Shown here piece by piece: positions 1 through 26,195 of a stretch of DNA of 64,000 nucleotides. The stretch comes from an uncultured Clostridia bacterium (GTDB lineage: Bacteria; Bacillota; Clostridia; Christensenellales; UBA1242), in the NCBI GenBank assembly GCA_944348085.1, contig CALVMU010000002.1, forward strand, positions 4,461 through 68,460, read 5' to 3'. The notes beneath the pieces are model-generated. The model worked only from the letters and a program-made list of their open reading frames with translations, did no database searches and was not told where the DNA came from. Position 1 is the stretch's first letter; each line of letters starts with the position of its first letter. The position numbers and the translations under genes were made by a program.

Positions 1-1
1 T

Positions 2-226
2 TATCATCACGATAAAGAGAAATACGAACTCCCTTCTTGTTACGATGGTTCTATCTTGCCCAACATTGAAACACTACATTACAAACAAAAGATAACCAAA
101 CGCAATGAATGGATTATTGACAACTGTGACATTTTAGTCTGTCACATAGAAGAAACTTACAAAAGTGGAGCTTACCACACCGTCAGATATGCCCAAAAGC
201 ATAATAAACCAATAATTTATATATAA
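2..226 (+). CDS. C-terminal fragment (gene runs off the left edge) of a SLOG-fold YpsA/DUF1273-like protein
   Basis: Frame 2 is open from the window edge to TAA at 224-226. It translates to ...ITKRNEWIIDNCDILVCHIEETYKSGAYHTVRYAQKHNKPIIYI. The pattern RN-W-hhD-s-D-hhh...(S/G)G...T..YA.K..KPI matches my memory of DUF1273/SLOG C-termini. Confidence 0.35.
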   Translation, partial: YHHDKEKYELPSCYDGSILPNIETLHYKQKITKRNEWIIDNCDILVCHIEETYKSGAYHTVRYAQKHNKPIIYI

Positions 227-268
227 AATATTTAATTCGCATTAACTTTAATAAATTATAAACTTTAT

Positions 269-439
269 TTATCTAATATACTCACTCATAAAATCTTCAT
301 AACTAATACATCTTATCCCAATATCATCACACACTGTAGGCGTCCTAGATGAATTTAGTTTTCGCTCTTCAATAGTTACAACTATTGCATTTTCACACTT
401 AGCCTTAGCTATCACAAAGGGATCTGCAGATGGAGCATA
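269..439 (-). pseudogene. Remnant (C-terminal ~56 codons only, no start codon) of a DUF4411 PIN-like protein
   Basis: The minus strand reads YAPSADPFVIAKAKCENAIVVTIEERKLNSSRTPTVCDDIGIRCISYEDFMSEYIR*. This resembles the ADPxxIA...VVTxE...IPxVC...I.C conserved C-terminus of DUF4411. An in-frame stop lies 7 codons upstream and there is no Met. Confidence 0.4.
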
Positions 440-590
440 GGAAATGATATTTTAAAAATGTATCATTTCTTGATATTTTTCATTTTTAAATAGTTCCTTT
501 ATAAAAATAAATTCGTTTATAAAACTTTTTCTTTAGACTATTATAACACATTGTTAAATTTATGTATTATAAAATTAAAATCAGAAAAAT

Positions 591-1493
591 TTACTTTTGC
601 ATTTCCAACTCATCAAGAATTTTAACTGCACGAATAATTTTATTTTTTATGTCTTTGCACTCATCTTGGGTATATTTATATTCTAAATCATTTATATCTT
701 GTATTATCATTTCTTTATTTTTAATAATAATTTTAGCATGTCCCAAATTATTTCTAATATTATTTAATGATTTCAACAAGTTTATATCCCGATCTGATAT
801 ATTAACTAACCTATATTTTTTAAAGAGTTTTAGCAAATTTATTTTTTTGCACATATCAAATAAATAATTTTTATTCAAAAACAAACTTCTAACATAATCT
901 TCACTAGATTTACACTCGTTGATCTTTTTAGTAAAATTATCATTACCCTCTTCAACCAGTTTATCTACTTCATTTGATATAACTTGTTTTAACTCTTGAG
1001 ATTGTCCCTCATATAATTCAAGTAGAAATTTCCTTAATCTAAATTCAATATCACTATAATTGTGCAATACTACACCTCGTAATGATAATGGGTTAAGTGT
1101 CCTTTTCTCTAATTTTTCTAATATCTTCTCGGTTTTTAAAATTAAATCATCTCGCTTGCATATATACACTCCATCAAGCTGAAATTTATCAATTTTTTGA
1201 AATAAATTTTCATTTGTCGTTGAATATAATATTATATCTGTCAAACTTCTATTGTTATCCCTGATTTCCCTGATAACCTCATGCCCACTAATATCATTAA
1301 CTAAGCTATAGTCTATCAGATATAAATCATAATCCTCAGATTTAACTACTTCCTTATAGTCTGAGCCATTAGACAATTTTATATCTGGAATCAAGCCCAT
1401 AGATTCAACCTTTTTCTTTATTTTTTGATATGTTGAATCTTCTTCATCAAGAATATTATCATCAACTATTAATAATTTAAATTTTATGTCCAT
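591..1493 (-). CDS. Response regulator: N-terminal CheY-like receiver fused to a C-terminal HEPN-like (predicted RNase) domain
   Basis: 300-aa ORF. Receiver hallmarks: LLIVDD (D11/D12), phospho-acceptor Asp in DLYLIDYSL (D61), ILYST (S91/T92) and ICKRD (K113). The C-terminal ~170 aa are helical and contain NIRNNLGHA, the RNxxxH (Rx4H) HEPN signature (R247/H252). The ATG overlaps the upstream gene by 17 nt. Confidence 0.75.
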   Translation of the reverse strand: MDIKFKLLIVDDNILDEEDSTYQKIKKKVESMGLIPDIKLSNGSDYKEVVKSEDYDLYLIDYSLVNDISGHEVIREIRDNNRSLTDIILYSTTNENLFQKIDKFQLDGVYICKRDDLILKTEKILEKLEKRTLNPLSLRGVVLHNYSDIEFRLRKFLLELYEGQSQELKQVISNEVDKLVEEGNDNFTKKINECKSSEDYVRSLFLNKNYLFDMCKKINLLKLFKKYRLVNISDRDINLLKSLNNIRNNLGHAKIIIKNKEMIIQDINDLEYKYTQDECKDIKNKIIRAVKILDELEMQK

Positions 1494-3732
1494 ATGCTAT
1501 TTTCATCCTTAGTCCAAAAGAAAAATTTGTATCTATTAATTCTATTGTTCCATTCATAGATTTTAATATTTTTGATATCGTATAAAGTCCAATTCCTGAT
1601 CCCTCTGTAGAAGTATAACCTAATTTAAATATCTCCTCTTTATTTCTTATAGATTTATTCAACCCGTCCCCATCATCTAAAGCATCTAAAATTAAATATT
1701 TTTCATCATTACTAAAATTTAAATATAAGTTTTTAGCATGAGCTTTATTAGAATTGCTAATTAAGTTTTCAATGACTGCAACTATTTCTGATGCTGAAAA
1801 CTTTAATTTAATTTCTTTGTCCAAATTGTTTGTTATTGTAACTTTCATTCCTAAATTTGGAGATCTATCATATATATTTCTTACATATTCATTGATAAAA
1901 GCTACTAAATCTGAATCTAATTGTATATCTGACTTTAATGAAAAATTTGCTTTTAAACCAAAATTACTTATCGAATATATTTTACTAGCCAAAAAGTCAA
2001 CCTGTGCAAGATTTTTTAAAATATTGTCTTCTTTTTTATTTTTTATATTGTCGAATATTATTTCAATATATTCTTTAATCTTATTTGCGAACAACATATT
2101 CAAATGTATTATTTCTTTAGCTTTTACAAAATCCTCATTTGTCGTATTTTCCAAAAAATAGTTTTGATTTGTTATTCTTTGTAGTTCCTGTTTTGTATCT
2201 TCATGTTGTTTTCTTTGCTCTTCATTTTTTGAAATAAGTTTTCGATTTACTTCTTGTAAATCTTCTACTCTCTTTCTTGTAGAATTAATTAATGATAATA
2301 GCTGTTCATTATTATTTTTTTCGGCTATCAAAGATATTTTATTAAGTGAATTTTGAATTGAAGAATCTGCTACCTTTTTTGAAACTTCTGCAATTATATT
2401 TTCATCATATCTAAGTTCTATCGGATTTGTTTTCTTTGTTATACCAGCAATTTGTTTTACTAGTTTTTCAAAATTTATATTTGCAACACTAAACATTTCA
2501 GAATCAGGATCTCCCCAATCTAAAACATCTACAACATATGTCTCAAGGATCTTCATTTTATCAACAAAAAATTTTTTTAACTCATCTACTTGTCTTGATT
2601 TTATAAATCCCTTGTCTCTACTAGATACTTCAACAAATCCTTTAGCTTCACCATTTATTTCTATTCTTCCTACTAAATCTCTTGTACCAAAATATCTTCT
2701 AGTTCCTTGTTGTTGTCTTAAATTAATGCCAAAGAAATCATCGTCGATTTCACCATATGGTAATATCCTAAATCCATTTTTAAACACGAATATATTCCCA
2801 TATGAAACTTGTGATATTCCCATTATTTTTGAAAACAACAACTTTGCCTTACGATTCATATAAAATAATTTTAAATGAATATCTTTAAGTGTTGTGTAAT
2901 CCTCATTCTTCTCTTTTATATAGAAAACTTCCTGTCCTTTATCATTTAAAGATGTAATTATTTCTTTCCCTATAGGGTCGATGTCCACAGTTAAAGCTAC
3001 TGTTTTAATATTTAATGATTCAAATAAAGTATTCTTTATAACACCATTAACAATATCTCTATCATTATTATACATTTTATCTCTTTCTAACTCTAATTCT
3101 GCATGTAATTCTATTGAAAATTCTGATGAGTTGTCTGTATTTGGAGAAATAAGTTTCATTAACATTCTTTTTAAAGACAATAATTCATTCCTATCCCATT
3201 TTTCCCTTAAATTAGAAATTTTAATTAAAGTTCCTTGCTTAGGAAATGTCTCAATAATAAGATCTTCATATTCAACAGGTATATCTAAAAAACTTTGTTC
3301 ATCAACATTTTCAAAGTTATCCCAATTAATTGAAACATGATGAACCACATCTTCATTATATTTTCGTGTATACAAATCAACAATAGAGCCAACTCTATCG
3401 CATGAAAACCTACCAACACCTTTTGCACCTAATTGTTCTCTTTCAAATTTTATGCCCTTTTTTCTGGCATTCTCAAGTTTTTTGTCAGAATATGCTACAT
3501 TTAACCAATTATTTATTATCTGATTAGAGTCCATCCCCTTCCCATAATCTTGTATTTCAATACTATCTATTTCATCTTTTTTATAATTAAAGGTTATATC
3601 CACCTTTTTTGAGTTCGCATCAAAAGAATTTTTAACTAATTCAAAAATAGCAACAAACTTATTTGTTATTAATTCTTTTCCAATAATATTTTTTAAACCA
3701 GCACTAACTTTAAAATTTAATTTTTTAATCAT
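1477..3732 (-). CDS. Cytoplasmic dual-GHKL protein: N-terminal MORC/Hsp90/MutL-type ATPase module + coiled coil + histidine-kinase core (DHp-like His + CA domain)
   Basis: The ORF-track start (3798) is trimmed to ATG 3732 (MIKKLNF...), which overlaps the methyltransferase stop within ATGATTAA. N-terminal Bergerat motifs: ELVKNSFDA (N-box), DYGKGMD (G1), GAKGVGRFS (G2). The middle is coiled-coil rich (EDLQEVNRKLISKNEEQRKQHEDTKQELQR). Candidate phospho-His lies in EIIHLNMLFANKI. A second, C-terminal GHKL module has NLISNSNKA, DDGDGL and GSGIGLY. I saw no TM segments. Confidence 0.75.
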   Translation of the reverse strand: MIKKLNFKVSAGLKNIIGKELITNKFVAIFELVKNSFDANSKKVDITFNYKKDEIDSIEIQDYGKGMDSNQIINNWLNVAYSDKKLENARKKGIKFEREQLGAKGVGRFSCDRVGSIVDLYTRKYNEDVVHHVSINWDNFENVDEQSFLDIPVEYEDLIIETFPKQGTLIKISNLREKWDRNELLSLKRMLMKLISPNTDNSSEFSIELHAELELERDKMYNNDRDIVNGVIKNTLFESLNIKTVALTVDIDPIGKEIITSLNDKGQEVFYIKEKNEDYTTLKDIHLKLFYMNRKAKLLFSKIMGISQVSYGNIFVFKNGFRILPYGEIDDDFFGINLRQQQGTRRYFGTRDLVGRIEINGEAKGFVEVSSRDKGFIKSRQVDELKKFFVDKMKILETYVVDVLDWGDPDSEMFSVANINFEKLVKQIAGITKKTNPIELRYDENIIAEVSKKVADSSIQNSLNKISLIAEKNNNEQLLSLINSTRKRVEDLQEVNRKLISKNEEQRKQHEDTKQELQRITNQNYFLENTTNEDFVKAKEIIHLNMLFANKIKEYIEIIFDNIKNKKEDNILKNLAQVDFLASKIYSISNFGLKANFSLKSDIQLDSDLVAFINEYVRNIYDRSPNLGMKVTITNNLDKEIKLKFSASEIVAVIENLISNSNKAHAKNLYLNFSNDEKYLILDALDDGDGLNKSIRNKEEIFKLGYTSTEGSGIGLYTISKILKSMNGTIELIDTNFSFGLRMKIAYGHKI

Positions 3733-4930
3733 TGTATAAAAACTCCTTAAATATTTCTGCCAATTGTTCTGCAAACAATGGCGGAACTGCATTACCAACT
3801 TGTGTAAATCTTGGTACGTCTTTTTTCCTTAATTCCCCACCTGTTGTATATTTCCCTTTAAACTGATACCAATCTGGAAAACTTTGAATTCTTGCCAATT
3901 CACGAACTGTTAAAATTCTAGGTTCACTATAATGTACAAAATCATCGGGATGAGTCGTAACTGTTGGAGCTGGGCTATTAGGATCCAACAAAACAACCCC
4001 TCTCCTTTTTAAATTTGGAACCAAATTGTCTGATGGTTTATATCTTTTTCCATGTTCTAAGTGTTCAATCATAAATTTCTGCATTTCTTGGATTTGTTTA
4101 CTATGATTCGCAAATCTATGGCTATCTGGATTTTCGTCACTTTTGATTTTTTTTCTCATAAACCTTTGATATGATGTATTAATATTACCATAATAACCAC
4201 TATAAAAAAACTGTTTACAATCTGGACATTTATAGATACCATTACTCTCTAACAAATCTGAAATAGCATCGCCTACTGTAGTTCTTATATTTAGCTGTTT
4301 TTTCTTGAGAAATTTTAACTTATACTTGTCAAGTTTTTCAAAAAAATCATCTATATTTTTTTTCAAACTTCCAACCAAAATAAATCTTTTTCTTCTTTGA
4401 GGAATACCGTACTCATCCATAAAAATCTCTTTAACTTTTATATTATATCCTAATTTTTTTAATCCTTCAATTACAACTTCCGAGTATTTTATTTTATCTC
4501 CATTATTTAATTTAAAATCTACAGAAATACCATGAACGTTTTCTAAAAGGATATATTTAGGCTTTACGCATTTCACAAACTCTATATAATTATTTACCAT
4601 AGTATTCCTAAAATCACTATGATCCCTTCTTCCAGCCATTGAAAATCCTTGGCAAGGTGGACCTCCTACAACAATATCAATTTCCCCCTTAAGTTTATAT
4701 AATTCTTTCTTATATGTTTTAAGGACTTCGACAATATCTAATTCAGTTCTTGGTAGCCATTGTGGCCAATTAAATTTATTTTTAGAAATTAAGTTAAAAT
4801 ATAAAGTACTAAAAGCATCCTTATTTTTTTCTATCGCAAAAATTCCAGTATATCCGGCATTGCAGAATCCTAAAGAAAGTCCTCCAGCACCTGCAAATAA
4901 ATCAATAAAAGTGTAATTATTGCTTTTCAT
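3725..4930 (-). CDS. DNA (cytosine-5)-methyltransferase
   Basis: All canonical C5-MTase motifs are present: DLFAGAGG (I), GGPPCQGFS (IV, catalytic Cys), LLENV (VI), QRRKR (VIII), RELARIQSFPD (IX), GNAVPP (X). The ORF-track start 4948 is a TTG. ATG 4930 (MKSNNYTFIDLF...) is more likely. Confidence 0.92.
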   Translation of the reverse strand: MKSNNYTFIDLFAGAGGLSLGFCNAGYTGIFAIEKNKDAFSTLYFNLISKNKFNWPQWLPRTELDIVEVLKTYKKELYKLKGEIDIVVGGPPCQGFSMAGRRDHSDFRNTMVNNYIEFVKCVKPKYILLENVHGISVDFKLNNGDKIKYSEVVIEGLKKLGYNIKVKEIFMDEYGIPQRRKRFILVGSLKKNIDDFFEKLDKYKLKFLKKKQLNIRTTVGDAISDLLESNGIYKCPDCKQFFYSGYYGNINTSYQRFMRKKIKSDENPDSHRFANHSKQIQEMQKFMIEHLEHGKRYKPSDNLVPNLKRRGVVLLDPNSPAPTVTTHPDDFVHYSEPRILTVRELARIQSFPDWYQFKGKYTTGGELRKKDVPRFTQVGNAVPPLFAEQLAEIFKEFLYND

Positions 4931-5078
4931 TTTTTCTCCCTTCTTCAACTTTTACAATTTTTTTTATAGCTTCCACAACATATTCATTAATACTTTTATC
5001 ATTTTTAACAGCAATAAGTTTTATTTGTTTATGAAGTTCAGGAGACATACGTATAATTAAAGATTTTGTATTTTTCAT
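4917..5078 (-). CDS. Small ribbon-helix-helix (CopG/Arc-like) protein, candidate controller of the methyltransferase operon
   Basis: 53-codon ORF absent from the track: MKNTKSLIIRMSPELHKQIKLIAVKNDKSINEYVVEAIKKIVKVEEGRKNEKQ*. The beta-strand (LIIRM), helix (PELHKQIKLIA) and helix (SINEYVVEAIKK) pattern is typical of RHH. AGGAG lies 7 nt upstream. The 3' end overlaps the MTase start by 14 nt. Confidence 0.6.
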   Translation of the reverse strand: MKNTKSLIIRMSPELHKQIKLIAVKNDKSINEYVVEAIKKIVKVEEGRKNEKQ

Positions 5079-5087
5079 ATAAACTCC

Positions 5088-5120
5088 TAATGATATCTAT
5101 ATATCTTGATATAATGATAT
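5088..5120 (-). promoter_or_regulatory. Two 9-bp direct repeats (plus strand TAATGATAT) in the operon leader; candidate RHH operator
   Basis: TAATGATAT occurs at 5088-5096 (overlapping the RBS of the RHH gene) and at 5112-5120, 24 bp start to start, in the only plausible promoter region of the operon. Confidence 0.25.
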
Positions 5121-5343
5121 TATATAAATAAGAAAAATGCAACTTATTATGTAATTTTAATTTTAAAATTTTATATTTTTCAACTATTTGTATTTATACA
5201 GAAAATAAAAAAGATATCTACAAAAGATTATAAATTTTATAAGATTAATATAAACACTATAATTTTTATATAGAGCCAGAATATATTTCCTATAATTAGT
5301 TTGTTATTTTTATTATTAAATTTCATATTTCATGTTATAATAT

Positions 5344-6381: not shown

Positions 6382-7197
6382 TTAATCTCTATAATATTTA
6401 TAATCTTTATTTACTAATGTGTAATCAGATATACCACAATTTGCTTTATTGCCATTATTTTTCATAAATGCTGCAAAACTCATTATCGTATGGTATTCAA
6501 TCTCCTTTATATATTGATGAAACTTAGGATGGATAATCGCATACATAAATTTATTCCACCCTGGTATTTCCTTTCTCCCAACCTTTACTCTATCTCCAAG
6601 TCTTGTTGCACTACCAATGTATAATTCCTTTTTAATTTCATCAATTAAATAATAAACAACATGATTTTGATCTTCATGCTTCTTTAACTCGGAGATATCC
6701 ATCCATCTTGTATATTTCGTAATCATCTGATCTTGTTTTTCTAAGCTTAACCAACCAAACACATTCGAATCAACAAGGTGCTTAAATAAATTATCATAAG
6801 GAGTTTCAACTTTTATAAATGTTGACAATTCAATTTCAGTTTCATTTAGTTTCTCAAAGACAATCACCTCTTGACTTCCGCCAATAAGTTCAGTATGAAA
6901 TTTCCTATTTTTGTTAAGCAATTTTTGGCTTTCTATTGCAATATAAGATTGAATAAATTCTTTTTTTAATACTTTAACAAGTTCAGTATCTAAAAATATT
7001 TGAAAAACTTTTCTTCCTGTTGATTGTAAAACAAAAGAAAATTTCCCGATATATTTTTTATTTTTAAATTTTATGCTAATTTTTCTATGTGTACCCCATG
7101 TCTCTTTATTAACATCTATAAAGTATATCCAATATTTTTTTGGAACAGTAATCCTGCCATCAAATGTGGATTTATCTATTTTTTTATAATATTCCAT
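6382..7197 (-). CDS. GIY-YIG nuclease-domain protein with an uncharacterised N-terminal domain
   Basis: The C-terminal third reads VVYYLIDEIKKELYIGSATRLGDRVKVGRKEIPGWNKFMYAIIH...IKEIEYHTI. This fits GIY...YIG...R...E spacing. The N-terminal ~170 aa (ITVPKKYW..., KISIKFKNKKYIGKFSF) are unassigned. Confidence 0.5.
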   Translation of the reverse strand: MEYYKKIDKSTFDGRITVPKKYWIYFIDVNKETWGTHRKISIKFKNKKYIGKFSFVLQSTGRKVFQIFLDTELVKVLKKEFIQSYIAIESQKLLNKNRKFHTELIGGSQEVIVFEKLNETEIELSTFIKVETPYDNLFKHLVDSNVFGWLSLEKQDQMITKYTRWMDISELKKHEDQNHVVYYLIDEIKKELYIGSATRLGDRVKVGRKEIPGWNKFMYAIIHPKFHQYIKEIEYHTIMSFAAFMKNNGNKANCGISDYTLVNKDYKYYRD

Positions 7198-7662: not shown

Positions 7663-8277
7663 TTATAACATTCTAGAATCATATTTTTTCATATCTTCAA
7701 TAGAGCAATATCCAATAAAACCAAATGTGCCTTCAAATTTGTCAGGTCTCATTGCATAAATTGTCGCTCTTGAATGTCCTTCAATGATTAAAAATTTTTT
7801 ATTATTGCAGGTAATTAGTATTATTGGAGGAAAAGAAATTGTATCGATTATTTTAGTTCCAGTTATAAAAGGCTCATTTGACACACCAAATATTTCCACT
7901 CCATCAGCGATAGTGCTTGCGGCAATTTTAGGTTTGGAAGTCCCTTTGGATAATTTATTCCAATAATCATAATCAATATAAAAAAGTTTCTCTAAGTCAT
8001 TGCGATTAAATTTGACAAATTCCCATTTATGAATATAAGGAAAATTACCAAATAATTCCTTATTGGGATACCCTCTGTATTCCTTGATAATTTTCTTTCT
8101 TAGATTGTTTTCTTCTTTGGAATCCAAATTACCATTAAAAATTATATTTGTATCTAATTTTAGTTGATACAAAATTTGACGCAATTTTTTATCAAATCTG
8201 ATTGAATTTAATTCGCCTTTCAAAAATGTCAATATCATCTCATCTTCACTTGAATCTCTTAATTTTTCCAAAATCAT
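7663..8277 (-). CDS. Hypothetical protein (204 aa), no recognisable motif
   Basis: Long ORF with coding-like composition. No family was recognised by eye. Confidence 0.5.
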   Translation of the reverse strand: MILEKLRDSSEDEMILTFLKGELNSIRFDKKLRQILYQLKLDTNIIFNGNLDSKEENNLRKKIIKEYRGYPNKELFGNFPYIHKWEFVKFNRNDLEKLFYIDYDYWNKLSKGTSKPKIAASTIADGVEIFGVSNEPFITGTKIIDTISFPPIILITCNNKKFLIIEGHSRATIYAMRPDKFEGTFGFIGYCSIEDMKKYDSRML

Positions 8278-8307
8278 CCCCCTTGACTGCTGTGATATAA
8301 CTTTTTT

Positions 8308-9495
8308 TCAACAAAGCAGCCATTTTGCTTCATTTTTACGCATTTTGATAAGATAAAGTGCCATCGCTATTTGCAAAGCTACAAATATCAGGCAAATGCC
8401 AAAAATGTATCTTAGTCCAAGTTCAAAAGTAAAACCGATTATAAGAGTTCCAAGTGCTTTCCCCATATAGCCAAAGATATAGCGCAAATTGCTGAAAGCA
8501 AACATATCAGCTTTATCACACCTATTGACATAAATGCCGTCCGTTTTGTTTTCGTAAGCCCGCGATATAAAAAGCGAGAAAAATACTCCAGCAAATAAAA
8601 CTTCTTTTATTGGGAAAATGACTATGGCAAGATAGAACAAAAACCTTAATGCAAACTTGGTTAAGATTGTCACATAATCATTTTTTGGAGTCAATTTTTT
8701 CAGAGCCAGCATTCCAAATATATCACCACAAATACATCCCACCACGATAAAGAGCGCCGCTGTGGAGGAAGTAAACTGACCATATCTGACAAGCATCAAA
8801 AGTTGCATGCCAAGTGCTGTGAAATAAGCAACTTGACCAATAAAGAAATAAACCAGGTAAAAACAAAGAATTTTGTCTTTGAATATTTTCTTTATGTTGT
8901 TCTTGCGCACAGCGAAGAAAACCTTTTCGTTTTTTATAAACATAACAGAAATGGTGGAACAAAGCGTGAAAAGCAATGCAAGCATTATCATAGTATTATA
9001 ATCTATAAGCCACGAACCAATCTGTCTTCCAATTAAAAAACTGGCAATTAAAAGCCCCAAGTCTGTTGCTGAATATTCAACAAGTTTGCGTTTGCTATAC
9101 ATTTTATCGCTTTTTAAGATATAAGAAATGATAGGATAAGTTACTGAGGCAACCAAGTTGTCAGTTATTGCATCAAAAATAAAGGTCAAAATGCAGAGCC
9201 ATTTAATAGAAAAATAAGCAGCTAAAATCATTAAGGTTAAAAACACCAGTTTAAGCGGAAAAATTAATTTCAAAATAAAAAGTTCATTGACTTTTTTTAT
9301 ATATTTCGTCAATAAAATAACAATTACGCCAGCCACAAAAGTTGCACATGCAATTATCATTCCTATATTGGAAATGGTTATTCCTTGTTCGTTTAGCCAA
9401 ACTTGTGCAAAATCTGACCATACACCATTTGATAGTCCATAAAAAGCAAGATACAAAAAAATAAGCCGAATATTTTTCTTTTGTCTTTGTCCCAT
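8308..9495 (-). CDS. Major-facilitator-type membrane transporter
   Basis: 395 aa with about 12 hydrophobic spans in a 6+6 arrangement and a basic central loop (AVRKNNIKKIFKDK). Confidence 0.6.
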   Translation of the reverse strand: MGQRQKKNIRLIFLYLAFYGLSNGVWSDFAQVWLNEQGITISNIGMIIACATFVAGVIVILLTKYIKKVNELFILKLIFPLKLVFLTLMILAAYFSIKWLCILTFIFDAITDNLVASVTYPIISYILKSDKMYSKRKLVEYSATDLGLLIASFLIGRQIGSWLIDYNTMIMLALLFTLCSTISVMFIKNEKVFFAVRKNNIKKIFKDKILCFYLVYFFIGQVAYFTALGMQLLMLVRYGQFTSSTAALFIVVGCICGDIFGMLALKKLTPKNDYVTILTKFALRFLFYLAIVIFPIKEVLFAGVFFSLFISRAYENKTDGIYVNRCDKADMFAFSNLRYIFGYMGKALGTLIIGFTFELGLRYIFGICLIFVALQIAMALYLIKMRKNEAKWLLC

Positions 9496-9622
9496 TGTTT
9501 TTATTATAACAAACTTTTTCGCAAAACAAAAACTTTTTTAAACCAAAAAAACGCTATCCTTTTCAAAAAATGCAATAACCTTGTTTGCCACTTTATATTT
9601 TTCCCATCCAAAATGATGCTGT

Positions 9623-11569
9623 TTAAGTCATAATTTCATCATAAGTAAAACCATCTTTGACAAGATAATAGTGCATTCCAAGTTTTTTCGCAGAACGAAG
9701 ATCGTGCTTGAAATTGTTGCCAACAACCAAGATTTGATTGGCTTTTAAATTGTTATCTTTCATGATTTTTTTGTATATTTTATACTTATCAAGATTTTCT
9801 TTTTTAGAAATATTGTTGCTGATAATGCCAGCAAACAAGTTGCGATCAAACTCGTTGTAATCTACCGCCCTTTGCAAGTCTTTTTCTTTCCAATTTGAAA
9901 CTATATAGATCTTGCCCAGTTTTTTGAATTTTTCAAGTTCTTTGTTGCTGATGTGTTTTCCGCGAATATAATTTTCGTTTGTTTCAGTAAATTCTCTAAA
10001 AATCAAATAAGAATTATTGTTCCCTTCTATATCAAAAAGAATTTCATTTATCTGACTAGACAATCCTTCTCCATTCGGTCCGCAACCATATTTTTTGAGC
10101 AATTTAGCTCTTTCTCTTTCTGACATATACGAAAAATGTTCATTAAACCATTGCAAATTCATCTCTCTATGGTTGTCTTTTTTCATATCCCAAACAAGCG
10201 TATCTCTAAAGTCAAAAATTGTCACTTTTACCTGATTTGAGATGAGGTTTGGATCTTCATTGATATTGCATAGCCACTTTTTTCTTTTAAAAATGATAAA
10301 ATATACAGGCAAGAACAGAAGCGTTGGTATTAAAATGATCAAATAAGCCAAAGGAACGCTGACTGGAAGAAATTGAACAATAAAGCACATAGATACAAGA
10401 ATTACGCTACAGAAAAATTCAATAATAACAAAAATGGTATTTTTGCCACCTAATCTGAGCATATAACTGCCCATATTCCATGCAATAAACCTGAAGAAAT
10501 GTATCGCTACATAACAAGGCATAACCATAAACATTAAACTAAAATATTCTCTGTTTACACCAAGAGCAATTGGATAAATCAAAGCCATGCTTGCTACGAA
10601 ATAGAAACACCAAATCAATATTGAAGCAACAATTGATTGTTTTGCATAAGTATAGGCCTTATCAAATTGATTTCTTCCAAGGCATCGAGTGATTCTGATT
10701 GCACTGACACTTGAAAAGGCAAATAGAAAGCCATTAAAAACATCTAAAACATTTTCAAGATAAGAATATGTGTTGAAAATTCCATCACTAAATCTAATCA
10801 AAATCATGCTTGTCGCATAATATCCAATTTGCCAAATAAATTCGACGGCAAGATTTGAAAGCAAAATCCACCACTGTCTTTTTGTCAAATTTATTGTTTG
10901 AAGTTTGAAAAAATTCACAGAAATTTCTTTGTTTTTCATAAGCAAAATTATTGAAAATGTCATTGAAAAAACCGTTCCCAAAATATACGCAATCGCAATA
11001 TAATTAAGATAATAAATTCCACAAAAATAAAGAATAAGAAACCCTAAAATCGTGATTATAAGTGGCGTTATTTCACAAACAAATTGTTGTTTGAAAAATT
11101 TTAAACACTTCATTGTTTCAACAAGATAAGAACTTGTGCAAGACAAAAAGAAATAGCCACACATGATGTAGTAAAAGGTATAGCTCTCAGGATTGTAGCC
11201 CATCAAAGTTTCCATAAAAAATCTAGGGAAAAGGACAAGCAGTGCTGTTACAATAAAACTAAAAATAATATTTATCTCGAAACCTATTTTAGCATATTTT
11301 CTTACTTTAAATTTTGAGGATATATTTTGATTCATAAAAACAGAAATTGCATTTCCAATACCAAAGGCAATAATGCTAGCAAAAGCATAAAGCGAAAGAA
11401 ATGCATTAAGATAGGTCAGCTCTTTAACATTCAAAAGATTTGCCAAAATCGATATAATGCTATATAAAAAAGCAACGGCAACATATTTTAAAAGTAAAAA
11501 TTTGCTTTCTTTAAAAGTTGACCAAAAATATTTGAAAAAGATTTTAGTTTTTGATTGTGTTTTGTTCAT
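9623..11569 (-). CDS. Fusion protein: polytopic MATE/MOP-flippase-like membrane domain + C-terminal HAD-like hydrolase domain
   Basis: About 430 aa with more than 12 TM spans are followed by a soluble ~210 aa domain. That domain has HAD-like motifs: TIFDFRDTLV (motif I-like), IYIVSN (II) and VVGNNFKHDL (IV-like). Motifs I and IV deviate from DxDxT and GDxxxD. Confidence 0.45.
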   Translation of the reverse strand: MNKTQSKTKIFFKYFWSTFKESKFLLLKYVAVAFLYSIISILANLLNVKELTYLNAFLSLYAFASIIAFGIGNAISVFMNQNISSKFKVRKYAKIGFEINIIFSFIVTALLVLFPRFFMETLMGYNPESYTFYYIMCGYFFLSCTSSYLVETMKCLKFFKQQFVCEITPLIITILGFLILYFCGIYYLNYIAIAYILGTVFSMTFSIILLMKNKEISVNFFKLQTINLTKRQWWILLSNLAVEFIWQIGYYATSMILIRFSDGIFNTYSYLENVLDVFNGFLFAFSSVSAIRITRCLGRNQFDKAYTYAKQSIVASILIWCFYFVASMALIYPIALGVNREYFSLMFMVMPCYVAIHFFRFIAWNMGSYMLRLGGKNTIFVIIEFFCSVILVSMCFIVQFLPVSVPLAYLIILIPTLLFLPVYFIIFKRKKWLCNINEDPNLISNQVKVTIFDFRDTLVWDMKKDNHREMNLQWFNEHFSYMSERERAKLLKKYGCGPNGEGLSSQINEILFDIEGNNNSYLIFREFTETNENYIRGKHISNKELEKFKKLGKIYIVSNWKEKDLQRAVDYNEFDRNLFAGIISNNISKKENLDKYKIYKKIMKDNNLKANQILVVGNNFKHDLRSAKKLGMHYYLVKDGFTYDEIMT

Positions 11570-11685
11570 TTTATTTATTATACAAAAAAAATCTTAAAAA
11601 TCAAATTGATTTATGAATAATAATGTTTTTTTATTATTGCGCATCAAGTTTTAATAACTTGTGGCAATTTTTTGTCTTTAAAATT

Positions 11686-12144
11686 TTATAACTCGCCCAA
11701 ATAATTAAATGCACATATGCAAATTGTAGCCATTGTTTTTGAAGTTATGTTTTTGTCGCTATAACACTCCTTTGCGCTCAGCCATTTATATTTGTCGTGT
11801 TCAGACAGCTTGATGTTATTGTTTGATTTGGTTTTAACCCAAAAATTGAATTGTCTAGATTTTTTACCGCTTCCAGAAATATAATCGAAAAAATCGATAT
11901 AGCCACAAATTTTATCTATGTCTAAATTTGTTTCTTCTTTTACCTCTCGAGCCAAGCCCTCAAAGATGCTTTCTCCAGCTTCCAATTTTCCACTAGGAAG
12001 CTCGTCAATTCCTCCTAAAAAATCATCGCTTTTTCGTCTAAGAATCAAAACCTTGTTGTTTTCGTCCGTTATAACTCCCCCGACCACGATCTTTTCAATT
12101 CCATCTTCCTTTGCTTTTGCTTCTAACAAATTTTCTATATTCAT
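11686..12144 (-). CDS. NUDIX hydrolase
   Basis: Nudix box GKLEAGESIFEGLAREVKEETNL (Gx5Ex7REUxEExGU). Confidence 0.9.
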   Translation of the reverse strand: MNIENLLEAKAKEDGIEKIVVGGVITDENNKVLILRRKSDDFLGGIDELPSGKLEAGESIFEGLAREVKEETNLDIDKICGYIDFFDYISGSGKKSRQFNFWVKTKSNNNIKLSEHDKYKWLSAKECYSDKNITSKTMATICICAFNYLGEL

Positions 12145-12318
12145 AATCCCCTCTTTTTCTCTATTTAACTTAAAATTTATCGAGTTTTCAGCATAAAGTT
12201 TAATTAATTATAACTTTTTACTTATTAAAAGTCAATAAAAAGAAAATGTTGTTCTTTTTGCAATAAAAAGTCATGAAAAGATTTTGGTTTATGATTTTTA
12301 TTTATTATAATATACCAT

Positions 12319-20921: not shown

Positions 20922-23900
20922 TTATGCAACTGTCAGTTCGGTCCATCCATCGCTTGTAAGGTCATCAAGTGTAACCGTGCCTGTCCAATAGTCGCTCATA
21001 GTTGAAAGAGCTTTAGGAATCGGACAACTGCTTGAATTGATCCAAGCAAACTCACTGAAATCATCACCTTGATAATATTTTACATCGTTAAGTATATACA
21101 AGTTGTTTGTCATTGTTATGTCAGCAGAGCCAACCAAAGTCAAATCCGCAATCTGTGATATTGCATAGCTGTTTGTTAGAGTGACTGGGATTGTGCTTAA
21201 ACCGATAAGCACTCCATGATTTGTTCCACCATATGTGATAGCGCTTTCAATTCCACTGCCCTCAATTGTAAATGTCACAGGATATGATTCAGTCGAACCT
21301 GAAACATTCAAATGTCCAACAAATCCACCGACATAGTCACCAGAAGAAGTCACACTGCCAAGATTGATGCAACCTGATAATGTGATGCTTGGAAGAGTGC
21401 TTGAATTTGAAACAACAAATTGTCCAATAAGACCTCCTGCATAATTGCCTGTTGCAGAAACTGGTCCATAGTTTTTCAAAGTCAAGATTGTGGAAACTGA
21501 AGTTGAACTTGAAGAATAAGATTGATTCATATAGCCAGCAATTCCACCGACATATTGGGTGCCTGAAACTGCTCCGTAGTTTGCGCTGTTGTTAACTATA
21601 CCATCCCCTGCAATTCCACCAACATATTGGGTGCCTGAAATATCTCCATAGTTGACACAATTTTCAAAGTCACATCCCATAGAGATATATCCAGCAATTC
21701 CACCAGTATTGATTTGGTCACTTGTCACATTGCCATAATTTATACAATTTGTGATGCCTAGAGGAGAATCATAGCTATAAAACACATAATATCCAAAAAT
21801 TCCACCAACGCCAAACTGACTACCGCTTGCCATTAATATGTTTACATCTATGTCTCCGCTGTTATAAGAATTTGAAATACCTGAAGAGCCACCTAAATAT
21901 GCAACCACTCCGCCAACATAATGCGCTTTGCCAGAAATAGAGCCTGTGTTATAACAATTGTTCAAAGTGGTTTCATAGCTATCACCAATCAAACCTCCAA
22001 CATAACCATTTGAACTTATTCCAAAAATATTTCCTGTATTATGTGAATTTGTCAAAGTTGTGTCATCTGTATCACTTACAATTCCGCCAGCATAAGAACC
22101 AGTCACACTGCCCTCATTGTAAACATTGTCGATTGTCAATGGAGATGTTGAATGAGAAAATTGTCCAATAATTCCTCCAGCAAAAGAAAGCCCAAGAATG
22201 TTGCCAGTGTTGCTACAACCAACAATTGAACCACCAGCTGAATCTCCTCCAGCGATAATGCCTCCAGCTATTGAAGTGCCAATCACGACAGCCGAGTTAT
22301 GACAATTTTCGACATTGATTTGAACACTTGGACTTACCAACATCATCATGCCAACAACTCCAGCCGCCCCATCATTTTGTATATATGATTCAGCAATGTT
22401 TATATTTTTAAGAGTTATATTGTCATTTAGTCCAATAACAACACCAAAAAGTCCGCCTATATAGTCAGAACCGTCTGTAAACATTCCTGTGATCTCATAT
22501 CCACCGCCGTCATAGTTTCCAGAGAATATTAAATAAGTTTGATTGACCATGTCAATGTTGCCAATTGCATTCCAAACATGTGCCGAAAGGTCAATGTCTG
22601 CTGTTTGCTTGAAATAGACTCCTGAAAACTGCATTTTCATTATCATTCCGCCGCCCATATCCATCGAGTCACCTTCAGCAAGATTGTTGTTGACAAGATA
22701 GGAAAGATATGCAAGATGCTCAGGTGTTGAGATGATGTAAGGGTCTTCTTCTGTGCCAGTTCCTCCGCCAAAAGAGGTGCCACGATATTCTTCATCAATC
22801 CAATTGCCTTGAATGGTTGAAGTGAAAACAGGATAGCCATCATTTTCGCCTTCAACAAAGCCCCAAAGTGAATAGAAATTCCAGCCACCAGCCCAAGCAT
22901 CACTCAAGTACCATTCCTGTGTTTTTGCAAGCGTGGTGATGTTTGGTTCATACACACCACCCAAATCTTCACCACTGCTAATGTCTGGCAAATCTTGCGT
23001 TGCACCATCACCATAAATCACATTAACTATTGACAAAACACTTACACTGCTTGCTCCACCAATTATTGCACCAACCAAGTTTTCTGCGCCTGTGACAGAA
23101 CCAATATTGAAGCAATTTATTACTGTGAGAGATTTGTTTGAATAAGGAGTATAATAACCCACAAGTCCGCCAGCATAGCCAGTTGATAAAATGTTGCCGC
23201 GATTATAAACGAAAGCCACCACTATAGGGTCTGAACTACTTACATTATTTAGTCTTACAGCATTTCCGAAAACACCACCAACTGCAGAAGTGTTGCTGCC
23301 ATTGGTCAGCTCAACATTTCCTAGATTATAGCAATTTGTTATACTGATAGTGTAATCTATACCACCAGCAAGACCTCCTATATAGCCTTGACCTCCATTA
23401 ACGCTGACATTGCCAATGTTATATGAATTGCTTATTCCTCCTGTGTAACCAGCAAGACCGCCAATGTTTGAAGAATAGTTTGTGCCAACAACATTTGCCA
23501 CAATGTTGCCTTCATTTATGCAAGAAGATATGGTCCCATAACCATAGCCAGCAATGCCTCCCACAGCAAGACCAATATAGGAGATGCTTGAACCTACAGA
23601 TGTTTTTGAGGTTACCGTTATATCTCCATAATTGTTGGAGTTAGCGATATAAGTTGATGTCAATCCAGCAATTCCGCCAACATTTCCTCTAGCCGCATAA
23701 AAAGAACCATTATAAGCACCTTGTGAGTCAATAACGAAAGAAGCAGTGATCGAACCATAATTTTCACAGTTTATTATTTGTGACGAGTTTCTGTCATAAC
23801 CATATATTCCGCCAACTGCAGTTGCGTTAGAACCATAGATATTTCCATAATTCTTACAATTGCTGACTGTGGTTTGACTAACATATCCAGCAATGCCCCC

Positions 23901-26195
23901 TACATATCCACCAAAGCCATAAACATCTGCATAACTGATGCAATTGGTGATAGTGACTGGATACATAGTTGCACCCATGATATAGTCAACTTGCGCAACA
24001 ATGCCACCGACACAGTTTGAACCATAAATTGTCGAGTCTTTAAGAATTATGTTTTCAATTGTGACCGCATCAATAGATGTTGAAGCATATGAGGTGTCGA
24101 TAAGTCCAAATAAACCTTGATTTTGGCTATCACTATTTCCGCCCATCCAATCTTCTTCGTCAATGCTGCCTTCAACAAAAGCAGGAGTTGCAAGGTTTGT
24201 TATCTCAAAATTTTGACCGTCATAGTGCCCAAAGAAATTATCAATAGGATCCCACAGATGACCGCTAAGGTCAATGTTTTGTGTTTGGATGAAATAAGTG
24301 TTTTCATAATGCGTGCCACTGCCTGTCATATATGAAAGATAGGCAAGTTCTGCACCATTTGAAATTTGATATGGCTTGTCTTCTGTTCCGTCACCGCCAG
24401 CAAAAACTTTCGCCCGCACACCTTCATCAGTCCAATAGGTTGCCTCTTCTATGATAATTATAGGATAGCCACCATTTTGCTCAGGGTCAATTGTCCAAAC
24501 AGAAGTAAAATTCCAAGGCTCAGATGAATTCCAATTGCTTTCATTTGTGTACCAATCTTGTGTTTTTGCAAGGTCAGCAATTGTGTCAAGATGGCTTGCA
24601 TCAATGCTGGAAGAATCGGCATTGTCTGCCCCTACAGCTGCAAGTGAACTTGATGCATCACCACCCCAATAATTTTTTAAAATTTCAATATCGCCATAGC
24701 TTAAACTGCCAACAATTGCACCACTTGCACCACTTGTTCCAGAGTTTGTGACAGAGCCAAGGTTGAAATTGTTGATAAGTTTGAGAGGTGCTAAAGTTAA
24801 TGAATCTCCACTTGTGCTTCCACCATCGCCTTTCACAGCCCCCAAAATTCCACCTACATTTCCAGAATCAAAAAGGTTGGTGACTGTTGCCGCATTATAA
24901 TTATTTGTTATATTGATAACATCATCAGGGATTATTGTCTCTTCACTGCCAACACTAATCATTGTTGCACCTGCAGAAGTTGTAAAGCCTACAATTCCGC
25001 CTGCGACAGCATAAGAAAAAGCATCGGCACCCACAGTAACATTGCCTCTGTTATAACAATTTTTGACATCACCAGAAACATAATATATATAAATAGAAGA
25101 ATCTCCACCGGTAATATCAATATTTGCCATTAATATAACTACTGCACTATTTGTTCCAACAATTCCTCCTGCGACACAATCTCCAACTATTTCGCCATAA
25201 TTTGCACATTTTGAGATTGTTCCGCCAGTTCCGCTTATTCCGCCTACATAAATACCAGTAATTTGACCATTGTTGATGCAACCTGTAATTATTCCAACAG
25301 TAAAGCCTGAGATGCCACCTGTTCCTACTCCATTAGCGATATTTCCGCCACCAGAACCAATACAATCGGCAGTTAAAGGACTGTTATTTACTGAATTTTC
25401 AACTCTTCCACCATAAAGCGTTCCAATTATCCCTCCAAAATTTGAGCCTTTATTTTCCATATCAGTGATAGTGCTATTATTGACACAATTTTCTACAACA
25501 GTGGCATAACCAAGACCAACTATTCCGCCTGCGCTTCCACCAAACGCATAGATTTCTGCATAACTTATGCAATTTGAAATTGTCATATAAACTTGTGACC
25601 AGTCGAGGCCTGAATCATTCACGTCTAAAGTTCCACCTGCAATAATAGAACCAGTAACACCTTGTCCAAAGATAACTGAATCGCGTAAAACAATGTTTTT
25701 GATTATAATTCGATTTGTGCTGTAGCTTGCAATTTCCGCTTCATGCCCAAACAGTCCAGCAAACTCTACTGGTGAGCTTTCTGTGCCAACATAGATGCCT
25801 GAAATTTCAAATCCGCCACCATCGAAAGTTCCGTAAAATGAATCAGTATTTGATGTGCCTATTGGCGTCCAATAATAGGCAGACATGTCAAGATCAGTTG
25901 TGACAAGAAAGTTTCTCCCTATGTCACTACCACTATTTATTTGATAAGCAAAATAAGCAAATTGTTCAGGTGTTGAAATCAAATATGGATCATCTTCAGT
26001 TCCAGTTCCGCCAGCATAAGACGTGGCATAGTTTCCGCTGTCAGTCCAATTTCCGCTGTTTGTTGGTCCATCAACAGCGATTGTTTGTTTTTCTTCTTTT
26101 GGAAGCGACAAAAAGTATAATCCTACAGAGCAAAAAGCAACGAAGATTGAAAGCAAAACAATCAGCACGATTGATTTTTTGGAGACCTTTTCCAT
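20922..26195 (-). CDS. Giant surface protein (1757 aa): N-terminal signal-anchor plus three tandem GLUG-motif beta-helix super-repeats
   Basis: N-terminal TM helix (IVLIVLLSIFVAFCSVGLYFLSL). Dozens of GG[IL][IVA]G...N[CS]xN.G.[IV] units fit the GLUG motif. Each module opens with GG.GTE.DPY.IS....LAY(L/F)(S/A)Y and closes with LAKTQ[DE]WY...W...NGGYP. Confidence 0.85.
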   Translation of the reverse strand: MEKVSKKSIVLIVLLSIFVAFCSVGLYFLSLPKEEKQTIAVDGPTNSGNWTDSGNYATSYAGGTGTEDDPYLISTPEQFAYFAYQINSGSDIGRNFLVTTDLDMSAYYWTPIGTSNTDSFYGTFDGGGFEISGIYVGTESSPVEFAGLFGHEAEIASYSTNRIIIKNIVLRDSVIFGQGVTGSIIAGGTLDVNDSGLDWSQVYMTISNCISYAEIYAFGGSAGGIVGLGYATVVENCVNNSTITDMENKGSNFGGIIGTLYGGRVENSVNNSPLTADCIGSGGGNIANGVGTGGISGFTVGIITGCINNGQITGIYVGGISGTGGTISKCANYGEIVGDCVAGGIVGTNSAVVILMANIDITGGDSSIYIYYVSGDVKNCYNRGNVTVGADAFSYAVAGGIVGFTTSAGATMISVGSEETIIPDDVINITNNYNAATVTNLFDSGNVGGILGAVKGDGGSTSGDSLTLAPLKLINNFNLGSVTNSGTSGASGAIVGSLSYGDIEILKNYWGGDASSSLAAVGADNADSSSIDASHLDTIADLAKTQDWYTNESNWNSSEPWNFTSVWTIDPEQNGGYPIIIIEEATYWTDEGVRAKVFAGGDGTEDKPYQISNGAELAYLSYMTGSGTHYENTYFIQTQNIDLSGHLWDPIDNFFGHYDGQNFEITNLATPAFVEGSIDEEDWMGGNSDSQNQGLFGLIDTSYASTSIDAVTIENIILKDSTIYGSNCVGGIVAQVDYIMGATMYPVTITNCISYADVYGFGGYVGGIAGYVSQTTVSNCKNYGNIYGSNATAVGGIYGYDRNSSQIINCENYGSITASFVIDSQGAYNGSFYAARGNVGGIAGLTSTYIANSNNYGDITVTSKTSVGSSISYIGLAVGGIAGYGYGTISSCINEGNIVANVVGTNYSSNIGGLAGYTGGISNSYNIGNVSVNGGQGYIGGLAGGIDYTISITNCYNLGNVELTNGSNTSAVGGVFGNAVRLNNVSSSDPIVVAFVYNRGNILSTGYAGGLVGYYTPYSNKSLTVINCFNIGSVTGAENLVGAIIGGASSVSVLSIVNVIYGDGATQDLPDISSGEDLGGVYEPNITTLAKTQEWYLSDAWAGGWNFYSLWGFVEGENDGYPVFTSTIQGNWIDEEYRGTSFGGGTGTEEDPYIISTPEHLAYLSYLVNNNLAEGDSMDMGGGMIMKMQFSGVYFKQTADIDLSAHVWNAIGNIDMVNQTYLIFSGNYDGGGYEITGMFTDGSDYIGGLFGVVIGLNDNITLKNINIAESYIQNDGAAGVVGMMMLVSPSVQINVENCHNSAVVIGTSIAGGIIAGGDSAGGSIVGCSNTGNILGLSFAGGIIGQFSHSTSPLTIDNVYNEGSVTGSYAGGIVSDTDDTTLTNSHNTGNIFGISSNGYVGGLIGDSYETTLNNCYNTGSISGKAHYVGGVVAYLGGSSGISNSYNSGDIDVNILMASGSQFGVGGIFGYYVFYSYDSPLGITNCINYGNVTSDQINTGGIAGYISMGCDFENCVNYGDISGTQYVGGIAGDGIVNNSANYGAVSGTQYVGGIAGYMNQSYSSSSTSVSTILTLKNYGPVSATGNYAGGLIGQFVVSNSSTLPSITLSGCINLGSVTSSGDYVGGFVGHLNVSGSTESYPVTFTIEGSGIESAITYGGTNHGVLIGLSTIPVTLTNSYAISQIADLTLVGSADITMTNNLYILNDVKYYQGDDFSEFAWINSSSCPIPKALSTMSDYWTGTVTLDDLTSDGWTELTVA

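Follow-up and report, generated by a model that had tools for sequence, protein, structure and literature searches.

What can a C5 DNA methylase be doing in one operon with a sensor kinase and a receiver protein, when no restriction nuclease is encoded with them? The question is raised by four overlapping genes near the start of a 64,000-nt stretch of DNA from an uncultured Clostridia bacterium of the Christensenellales (GenBank assembly GCA_944348085.1, contig CALVMU010000002.1, positions 4,461 to 68,460 of the forward strand), the whole of which is called the window below. They encode a small RHH protein, the methylase, a kinase that joins a MORC-like GHKL ATPase to a histidine-kinase core, and a regulator made of a receiver (REC) and a C-terminal domain that we assign to HEPN. 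A first-pass annotation, made from the sequence letters, had proposed that these genes form a methylation-linked defence system gated by a phosphorelay. Here, we find that methylase, kinase and regulator are a genuine, ancient, mobile and widespread three-gene unit, of which the copy in the window is intact, and that this cassette is most likely a two-component defence or addiction system in which a MORC-like sensor would govern a HEPN RNase through phosphorylation.

Relatives of the kinase are numerous, with more than 2,600 protein clusters in the databases and at least 567 loci in species-representative genomes. The comparisons below use the best 80 of these at least 567 loci (one genome per species scanned), which come from Bacillota, Bacteroidota, Spirochaetota, Planctomycetota, Patescibacteria, Nitrospirota, Acidobacteriota, Fibrobacterota, Cloacimonadota, and Proteobacteria. 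Kinase residues were compared in an alignment of 81 sequences, regulator homologues were counted downstream of the kinase in 79 loci, and regulator residues were compared in 40 relatives of 20-30% identity (about 25% overall); the window proteins were scanned against Pfam, NCBIfam, and PADLOC. A methylase orthologue stands directly upstream of the kinase gene and ends at its start in 80 of 80 loci, with 50-61% identity in the 30 best loci and a median of about 52%, and the kinase gene is followed by that of a REC homologue in 78 of 79, the two overlapping by 4 nt in most cases. The expectation that these genes would be conserved as neighbours is borne out across phyla. Clustering of all neighbouring open reading frames (ORFs) in the 80 loci gave no fourth conserved gene; the scattered neighbours include McrB-like, integrase, and PNKP-phosphatase genes. 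The methylase is kept in 18 and the regulator in 17 of 19 more distant copies from IMG/VR viral contigs, and on several of these contigs the methylase is convergent and downstream, not upstream, a layout that is also found on Campylobacter conjugative plasmids. Since the linkage survives such rearrangement of gene order, the tie between methylase and kinase seems to be functional and not just positional. We regard the cassette and the identities of its domains as almost certain.

In the window the four genes lie on the minus strand and overlap by 14 nt (RHH and methylase, ATGAAAAGCAATAA), 8 nt (methylase and kinase, ATGATTAA), and 17 nt (kinase and regulator, ATGGACATAAAATTTAA). The ORF listing and a direct reading of each junction agree with the lengths first reported, and every peptide motif quoted in the first-pass annotation is present in the translations. 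Given these overlaps, methylase, kinase, and regulator form one tightly coupled transcription unit, as proposed earlier. The RHH, methylase, and kinase starts each have an AGGAG-like ribosome-binding site in front, and the REC start has a weaker TAAGGA. The G+C content is 24-29% over the cassette (window 1-5000) against approximately 30-37% in chromosomal genes farther along, such as AsnA and ABC transporter genes, which is consistent with horizontal acquisition.

The methylase carries the complete set of catalytic motifs that had been claimed for it (FAGAGG, PPCQGFS, ENV, QRR, RELARIQSFPD, and GNAVPP), and it matches Pfam DNA_methylase over the full length of the model (195 bits), TIGR00675 (169 bits), and PADLOC MTase_II (1.9e-86). 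The cysteine of its PCQ motif is C92. Its target-recognition region is moderately conserved among the orthologues as well. The kinase is a soluble protein in which an N-terminal GHKL ATPase is followed by a middle module, a helical linker, a helix with His543, and a C-terminal kinase domain (Table 1). That it contains two separate Bergerat modules is confirmed by Pfam matches to both HATPase_c_3 and HATPase_c, found likewise in 16 of 16 relatives scanned, and by the conservation of both ATP sites. In the N-terminal site E31, N35, D38, D62, G64, G66, G102, G105, and G107 are invariant in all 81 sequences; in the C-terminal one N660, G711, G713, and G715 are invariant, and D686, G688, G690, and F702 occur in at least 79 of the 81. 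Conservation is by far the strongest over the first 400 residues, and highest in the middle module; many arginines and lysines are invariant here, among them K318, R322, R339, R346, R351, and R372 of the middle module. This module may represent the S5-like transducer of MutL/MORC ATPases and possibly offers a nucleic-acid-contacting surface, a fold assignment that leans on what we take to be the 'NGR' motif of MutL. The GHKL domain further matches the NCBIfam model of BbrUII/HgiDII (aa 15-208, 80 bits, 1.1e-22; family cut-off 550) and, weakly, models of MutL, MzaB, and sacsin. The linker before the kinase core is poorly conserved, and its weak matches to Rootletin and YabA hint at a coiled coil. 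His543, the phosphorylatable histidine on which the earlier proposal depended, is invariant in 81 of 81 sequences and aligns with the histidine of the 'LHEGRRP' and 'AHETSRP' H-boxes (HE..P type) of plasmid-borne relatives. By this conserved H-box histidine and the N, G1, F, and G2 boxes, the protein is predicted to contain a histidine-kinase core. Pfam detects no nuclease domain or motif in the operon proteins, in agreement with the earlier remark that the operon encodes no classical restriction nuclease.

The N-terminal part of the regulator has the fold of a receiver. Pfam Response_reg aligns with aa 14-100 (31.5 bits, barely over the cut-off), and 31 of the 40 relatives match PF00072. The AlphaFold model of the full protein, built with 13 homologues, has a predicted local distance difference test score (pLDDT) of 86.6 and a predicted template modelling score of 0.83; it shows a (beta-alpha)5 receiver fold, and a Foldseek search with it returned receiver domains only. 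Among the 40 relatives D12, D56, D61, S91, and R114 are nearly invariant, and G70 is invariant. The receiver had been described as intact on the basis of an acidic pair, D61, a Ser/Thr, and a lysine. The first three are conserved as described; the lysine is not, as K113 is variable and R114 is the basic residue that is kept after beta5.

The claim that the C-terminal part is a HEPN domain with an RNxxxH signature, not a DNA-binding domain, has held up well on conservation, on the model, and on Pfam matches in relatives. A profile search with this domain found 51 relatives, mostly of about 300 aa, in which the domain is likewise C-terminal. R139, G140, R247, N248, and H252 are invariant in the 40 relatives; the motif reads R247-N248-N-L-G-H252, and a strict RNxxxH-type pattern is present in 75 of the 79 proteins encoded downstream of the kinase. 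Modelled alone, the domain reaches a pLDDT of 90. In the model a long first helix (with R139-G140) is followed by more helices, by a helix that ends in RNNLGH, by a beta-hairpin, and by a last helix; the RNNLGH helix covers domain residues 109-126 and is the penultimate one, with the motif at its end. According to the 2013 HEPN survey (PMC3710099), helix 3 ends in the Rx4-6H motif, whose arginine is followed by a polar residue, and in Csx1 a beta-hairpin follows directly after the motif (PMC3710099). The placement of the motif in our model agrees with this description, the comparison being one of secondary-structure order only and not of coordinates. When 76 family members were compared with Pfam, HEPN families dominated, namely HEPN_MAE_28990 (7 members), HEPN_Swt1 (7), HEPN_Apea (5), HEPN_RiboL-PSP (4), and Abi_2 (2); all of these matches are below threshold, and no unrelated family was matched by more than two members. 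Five relatives in a large protein collection carry both PF18735 and PF00072 as precomputed assignments. HEPN is the best reading of the regulator C-terminus, well supported by sequence and model and not proven for the window protein itself, and by its motif the regulator is a probable RNase. This clade of HEPN effectors appears to be unrecognised so far.

A gene found next to one relative bears on this prediction. In locus L047 a PNKP-type HAD phosphatase of 150 aa is encoded directly after the REC::HEPN gene (11188-11640; Pfam 4.6e-35), and the same gene cluster recurs in four loci, including L064 (11217-11681) and L066 (11264-11707). PNKP-type phosphatase domains are used in RNA-end healing. 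A phosphatase after the HEPN gene fits an RNA-cleaving effector, and the enzyme of L047 could serve to heal RNA ends or as an antidote.

Table 1. Features of the operon and of its encoded proteins in the window.
Feature	Position	Strand	Details
REC protein gene (regulator)	591..1493	-	300 aa
C-terminal helical domain, assigned to HEPN	594..1118	-	aa 126-300; R247, N248, H252 codons 738-755
Receiver domain	1134..1493	-	aa 1-120; D11-D12, acceptor D61, S91/T92, K113-R114
GHKL-kinase gene	1477..3732	-	751 aa from ATG
Histidine-kinase catalytic domain, HATPase_c	1534..1788	-	aa 649-733, 54 bits; N, G1, F, G2 boxes
His543 codon, candidate phospho-acceptor	2104..2106	-	invariant 81/81
Middle module	2503..3135	-	about aa 200-410; motifs KNGFRIxPYG, RxxQGxxRxxGTRxxxGRI
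N-terminal Bergerat ATP-binding domain, HATPase_c_3	3280..3657	-	aa 26-151, 79 bits
C5 methylase gene	3725..4930	-	401 aa from ATG
RHH gene	4917..5078	-	53 aa
Imperfect inverted repeat, candidate operator	5090-5123	-	directly upstream of the RHH ribosome-binding site
Candidate promoter, TTGAAA-18-TAAAAT	5183-5154	-	weak: promoter-like sites no commoner than in shuffled sequence

The first-pass annotation recognised no named system of this sort, which is too strong, since the class has been described and has an experimentally validated relative. Bellieny-Rabelo, Pretorius and Moleleki (2021, Genome Biol Evol; PMC8011034) reported proteins with the order HATPase_c_3, HEF_HK, and HATPase_c that have C5 methylases upstream, derived them from paraMORCs, and found 91.6% of these histidine kinase-like proteins linked to 'Response_reg_2' proteins; they saw no domain in the C-terminus of the regulator and suggested that the pair regulates restriction-modification. 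Like the window proteins, their pairs consist of a soluble kinase with HATPase_c_3, a His helix, and HATPase_c, next to a receiver-like protein and a C5 methylase upstream, and they share with the window copies and their relatives surroundings that are rich in restriction-modification genes. The two Pfam families of that study were not recovered here: HEF_HK (PF19191) gave no match at E <= 1 to the window kinase and 16 relatives, and Response_reg_2 (PF19192) none to the window regulator and 40 relatives, in both cases without a positive control for the library copy. The window clade differs from the published pairs by its ordinary PF00072 receiver, by an H-box that lacks an acidic residue after the histidine, and by a C-terminus that can be assigned to HEPN. 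A search of full-text literature yielded no later study that takes up the 2021 families.

The closest validated relative is Ambrosia (bioRxiv 10.1101/2025.09.30.679545), reported in Gammaproteobacteria, which comprises the XRE regulator AbrR, the N6 methylase AbrA, the kinase/HSP90-like ATPase AbrB, AbrC with a receiver and a winged helix-turn-helix (REC-wHTH), and the type IV HNH nuclease AbrD. It acts against phages in Pseudomonas aeruginosa, where every gene and the receiver aspartate are required (10.1101/2025.09.30.679545). Ambrosia and the window share the order of small regulator, methylase, GHKL-type kinase, and receiver protein; the window differs in having a C5 instead of an N6 methylase, RHH instead of XRE, HEPN instead of wHTH, and no HNH gene, and its clade spans many phyla. 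The likeness is thus one of architecture and gene logic, as judged from the description. Detocs resembles the window in using a His-Asp phosphorelay as a defence switch, with a swappable effector fused to the receiver: the kinase DtcA, the buffer receiver DtcB, and the receiver-PNP protein DtcC gate the effector by phosphorelay. Its sensor consists of TPR repeats and not of a GHKL/MORC module, it has the buffer receiver as a third gene and no methylase, and its main effector is an ATP nucleosidase; neither the ORF list nor Pfam gave TPR repeats or a second receiver gene in the window. PADLOC has no model that matches the kinase or the regulator beyond a weak match of MzaB to the kinase.

The separate modules have known counterparts too. 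With HEPN RNases of abortive infection and toxin systems (Abi2/AbiD/F, RiboL-PSP, Swt1-like, ApeA, and MAE_28990) the regulator shares the Rx4H motif with an asparagine after the arginine, a helical bundle whose third core helix ends in this motif, and a frequent operon linkage to restriction-modification; it differs from them by its receiver fusion and dedicated kinase, which are not listed in the 2013 survey (PMC3710099). The MORC/paraMORC and MutL GHKL ATPases share with the kinase the N-terminal Bergerat ATPase with a catalytic glutamate and the association with DNA methylases, whereas the window GHKL domain is fused to a histidine-kinase core instead of working with helicases or nucleases. 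Sacsin likewise combines Hsp90-like ATPase modules with HEPN (2013 HEPN survey), and neither this survey nor the 2008 MORC survey (Iyer, Abhiman & Aravind) describes a receiver-HEPN fusion or the cassette. The class is therefore already described and partly validated, and the window clade stands apart in its H-box, its ordinary receiver, its HEPN output, and the lack of a nuclease gene.

Outputs vary among the more distant relatives. On a Hymenobacter plasmid (L081, 4646-9780) an N6 methylase and a GHKL-kinase are accompanied by a 227-aa protein of no family and a hydrolase of the metallo-beta-lactamase (MBL) fold, and a Stenotrophomonas plasmid encodes a C5 methylase, a short receiver, and a 226-aa protein with a related kinase. 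The regulators on plasmids of Campylobacter (L083, 8180-9202) and Enterobacter (L088, 7096-8169) join the receiver to a different conserved C-terminal domain, with the motifs …PGEMYIYP…TPSCD…PFLKDIIAKFSRYYARQG… and no Pfam match, which is a possible effector. Outputs that are swapped around a constant sensor-kinase are a pattern known from defence systems.

Taken together, the cassette is most likely an anti-phage two-component system related to Ambrosia, a prediction made from sequence, and a role in defence or conflict, against phages or plasmids, seems probable. The C5 methylase would mark the DNA of the host, and the MutL/MORC-like GHKL sensor would meet foreign DNA, in the simplest case unmethylated DNA, or another cue of infection. 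The GHKL module might then undergo ATP-driven dimerisation and pass this change through the helical linker to the kinase domain, which would phosphorylate His543; to judge from the invariant residues, the phosphate would go on to Asp61 of the regulator. As receivers and HEPN domains generally behave, phosphorylation of the receiver could dimerise or release HEPN and form an RNase site from R247, N248, and H252, and the cleavage of RNA would halt translation and lead to dormancy or abortive infection. For the activation of the HEPN RNase by His-to-Asp transfer the balance is somewhat favourable, and for the whole chain up to and including a kinase-gated HEPN RNase defence, whatever its signal, it is even. 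Of all steps, the one that would link methylation state to kinase activation holds the most interest and has the weakest support, and methylation as the discriminating signal is put forward tentatively, the balance being against it.

Several observations weigh against this reading. On the output side, no Pfam HEPN model matched the window regulator, whose C-terminal 175 residues were left blank; a Foldseek search of the C-terminal domain against the Protein Data Bank (PDB) and BFVD gave nothing significant, the HEPN structure 2hsb ranking 42nd with E = 2.2; and sequence-profile searches of the PDB with two alignments of the domain yielded chance-level matches only. The relay itself deviates from the textbook form at both ends. 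No Pfam DHp model matched the His543 region in the window kinase and the relatives scanned, and the H-box lacks the usual acidic residue after the histidine, the following residue being H, S, L, or I and never acidic in the 81 sequences, while in the receiver the canonical lysine is replaced family-wide by an arginine one position later. A buffer receiver like DtcB, which could account for the avoidance of leaky activation, is absent. In Ambrosia, phage that had been methylated by AbrA beforehand stayed sensitive (10.1101/2025.09.30.679545), which speaks against methylation as a self-mark and weakens the methylation-sensing step here, and its regulator was read as a transcription factor, so that the relay could be regulatory (10.1101/2025.09.30.679545).

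Which readings compete, then, with a kinase-gated RNase that is set off by unmarked DNA? That reading amounts to restriction-modification without restriction, in which the GHKL module would read the 5-methylcytosine mark of its partner and unmarked DNA would trigger the phosphorelay and the RNase with no cutting of DNA; in this full form it is rather unlikely. The same kinase-gated RNase could also answer to another signal, with the GHKL module sensing a phage protein, a nucleotide, or a DNA structure, and the methylase modifying invader DNA, protecting against a co-resident enzyme, or serving as a structural part of the sensor. We consider this unlikely. The Ambrosia phages that methylation did not protect speak for it, as do the type IV enzymes attacking modified DNA that often adjoin the cassette (GmrSD, EVE-HNH, AspBHI-Mrr, McrB-like) and a methylase that, at its median identity, is more conserved than is usual for a diversifying self-mark. 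Against this, a C5 or N6 methylase stays beside the kinase despite changes in gene order, which is the pattern of a mark for self and non-self, and the BbrUII/HgiDII restriction enzymes have a homologous GHKL domain. A selfish addiction module is a very improbable alternative, in which loss of the cassette would let methylation fade until kinase and RNase kill or arrest the cell, stabilising a mobile element. Carriage on Tn7-like elements, plasmids, prophage-like contigs, and integrase-flanked islands would suit such a module, and so would a methylase that comes first in the operon and the frequent presence of a controller-type regulator, as in restriction-modification systems. Its molecular steps are the same as those of the defence model, and genomics cannot separate the two; the clustering of the cassette with many bona fide defence genes argues against it.

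Two further readings deny the regulator or the kinase the part assigned to it here. In a regulatory two-component pair, as proposed for the class in 2021 (PMC8011034) and modelled for Ambrosia, the kinase would sense a cue and the regulator would alter the expression of neighbouring restriction-modification or other genes and would not itself be the effector. Reporter genes placed in the Ambrosia cluster were induced on infection (10.1101/2025.09.30.679545) and AbrC was assigned a winged helix; in our model the C-terminal domain has a helix-flanked beta-hairpin, and Foldseek gave it no placement. We nevertheless hold this reading to be quite improbable: no DNA-binding Pfam family is found among the weak matches, where HEPN families dominate, a triad, R-N-x3-H, that stays invariant at about 25% identity suggests catalysis and not the reading of DNA, and the conserved cassette holds no nuclease or other gene to regulate, while its flanks vary by genome. 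The other reading takes the 751-aa protein for an ATP-dependent restriction subunit like BbrUII/HgiDII with vestigial kinase and receiver features, and it can point to the NCBIfam match of the GHKL domain and to the position of the gene directly after a C5 methylase. The score is far from the family cut-off, the C-terminal kinase domain has all its boxes together with the invariant histidine, and no nuclease motif or domain was detected, which makes this reading barely credible. A BbrUII/HgiDII-type restriction enzyme, as a candidate identity of the kinase, was ruled out, as the GHKL domain alone aligns.

Upstream of the conserved core, control of the operon appears changeable. The RHH protein matches Pfam HicB/RHH (E = 1.8e-9) and is kept in contigs with an identical kinase protein; as a member of the system, as which it had been listed, it is not conserved, since tblastn found no homologue in the 80 loci. 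In Christensenellales metagenome-assembled genomes with kinases of about 78% identity, an HTH_19/31 protein overlapping the methylase stands in its place (L085) or the place is empty (L084). Because of this replacement or loss, RHH is probably an exchangeable operon regulator of the controller type outside the conserved core, in which it resembles AbrR of Ambrosia. ORFs of about 110 aa, of one family, lie upstream of the methylase on either strand in 19 of the 80 loci (e.g., L002, 6366-6698) and may encode controller proteins as well; the one member scanned, that of L002, has no Pfam match. In the window the RHH gene is preceded by a candidate promoter and by an inverted repeat with 16-nt arms that are 81% complementary and spaced by 2 nt. 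The repeat is a possible operator, chance being a likely explanation, and the evidence for both elements is weak because the region is very A+T-rich.

A setting in a defence island or mobile element, as suggested in the first-pass annotation, is supported by restriction, Abi, and integrase neighbours. Left of the window, contigs with an identical kinase carry a YpsA-like gene, a type III restriction-modification pair, and two integrases; on another such contig the left flank consists of Eco57I/MmeI-type genes, with a KAP NTPase gene on the other side. Elsewhere the neighbours are HsdR and GmrSD, EVE-HNH and GmrSD (Bacillus cereus group), and ResIII, AspBHI-Mrr, AbiH, HipA, JetD, integrases, and restriction genes of types I, III, and IV, and one copy of the cassette is cargo of a Tn7-like element. 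The linkage of the island to a tRNA has to be given up: no tRNA or any other Rfam family was found in the 64-kb window, nor a tRNA within 10 kb of the kinase gene on three contigs with the same kinase protein. As for the nearby genes named earlier, the Fic gene is real (SoFic model, 1e-42), while for the 271-aa GIY-YIG protein the VYY…YIG motif is visible and the Pfam match is only sub-threshold (E = 0.056). As conserved partners of the cassette, RHH, Fic, and GIY-YIG were rejected, with 0 RHH, 0 GIY, and 3 Fic matches in the 80 loci.

Other genes in the window are noted for completeness. The Mur ligase gene had no blastn match in a plasmid collection, and the host is a bacterium of low G+C content (about 25-35%). 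Positions 56-226 (+) hold the tail of a 147-aa YpsA/SLOG-like gene (L095, 13507-13950), which adjoins the cassette in every contig with an identical kinase. The genes of the 271-aa protein (6382-7197, -) and of a 204-aa protein that gave no match (7663-8277, -) are absent from some contigs with the same kinase, so the island content varies. A 1257-aa protein (26895-30668, -) with DUF4011, an AAA_11/AAA_12 helicase, and a C-terminal MTES_1575 restriction-endonuclease-like domain is a candidate for a second, unrelated defence gene about 22 kb from the cassette. Large ORFs on the minus strand occupy 20922-26195 (1757 aa, no Pfam match), 35598-40799 (1733 aa), and 40823-47071 (2082 aa); the 1733-aa ORF has ten MBG_2 repeats and YDG domains and an adhesin-like look.

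The cassette is present in the Bacillus cereus group (L089: methylase 7725-8975, kinase 9001-11313, regulator 11315-12241), and relatives of the regulator family are annotated in Bacteroides uniformis and Alistipes finegoldii from the human gut. Public annotation of the cassette proteins goes no further than 'ATP-binding protein', 'sensor histidine kinase', or 'hypothetical protein'. With the REC::HEPN architecture recognised, a gene pair that had seemed vaguely 'regulatory' can be tested as an effector system, and the principle of Detocs and Ambrosia, a phosphorelay as an immune switch, is extended to an RNase output. We know of no signal for bacterial MORC-like ATPases; in this cassette such a signal becomes testable, as phosphotransfer is a readout that is easy to assay. 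If the GHKL module does read the mark of its methylase partner, a prokaryotic MORC-family ATPase would be coupled to the methylation state of DNA, echoing the link between eukaryotic MORC proteins and methylation-dependent silencing.

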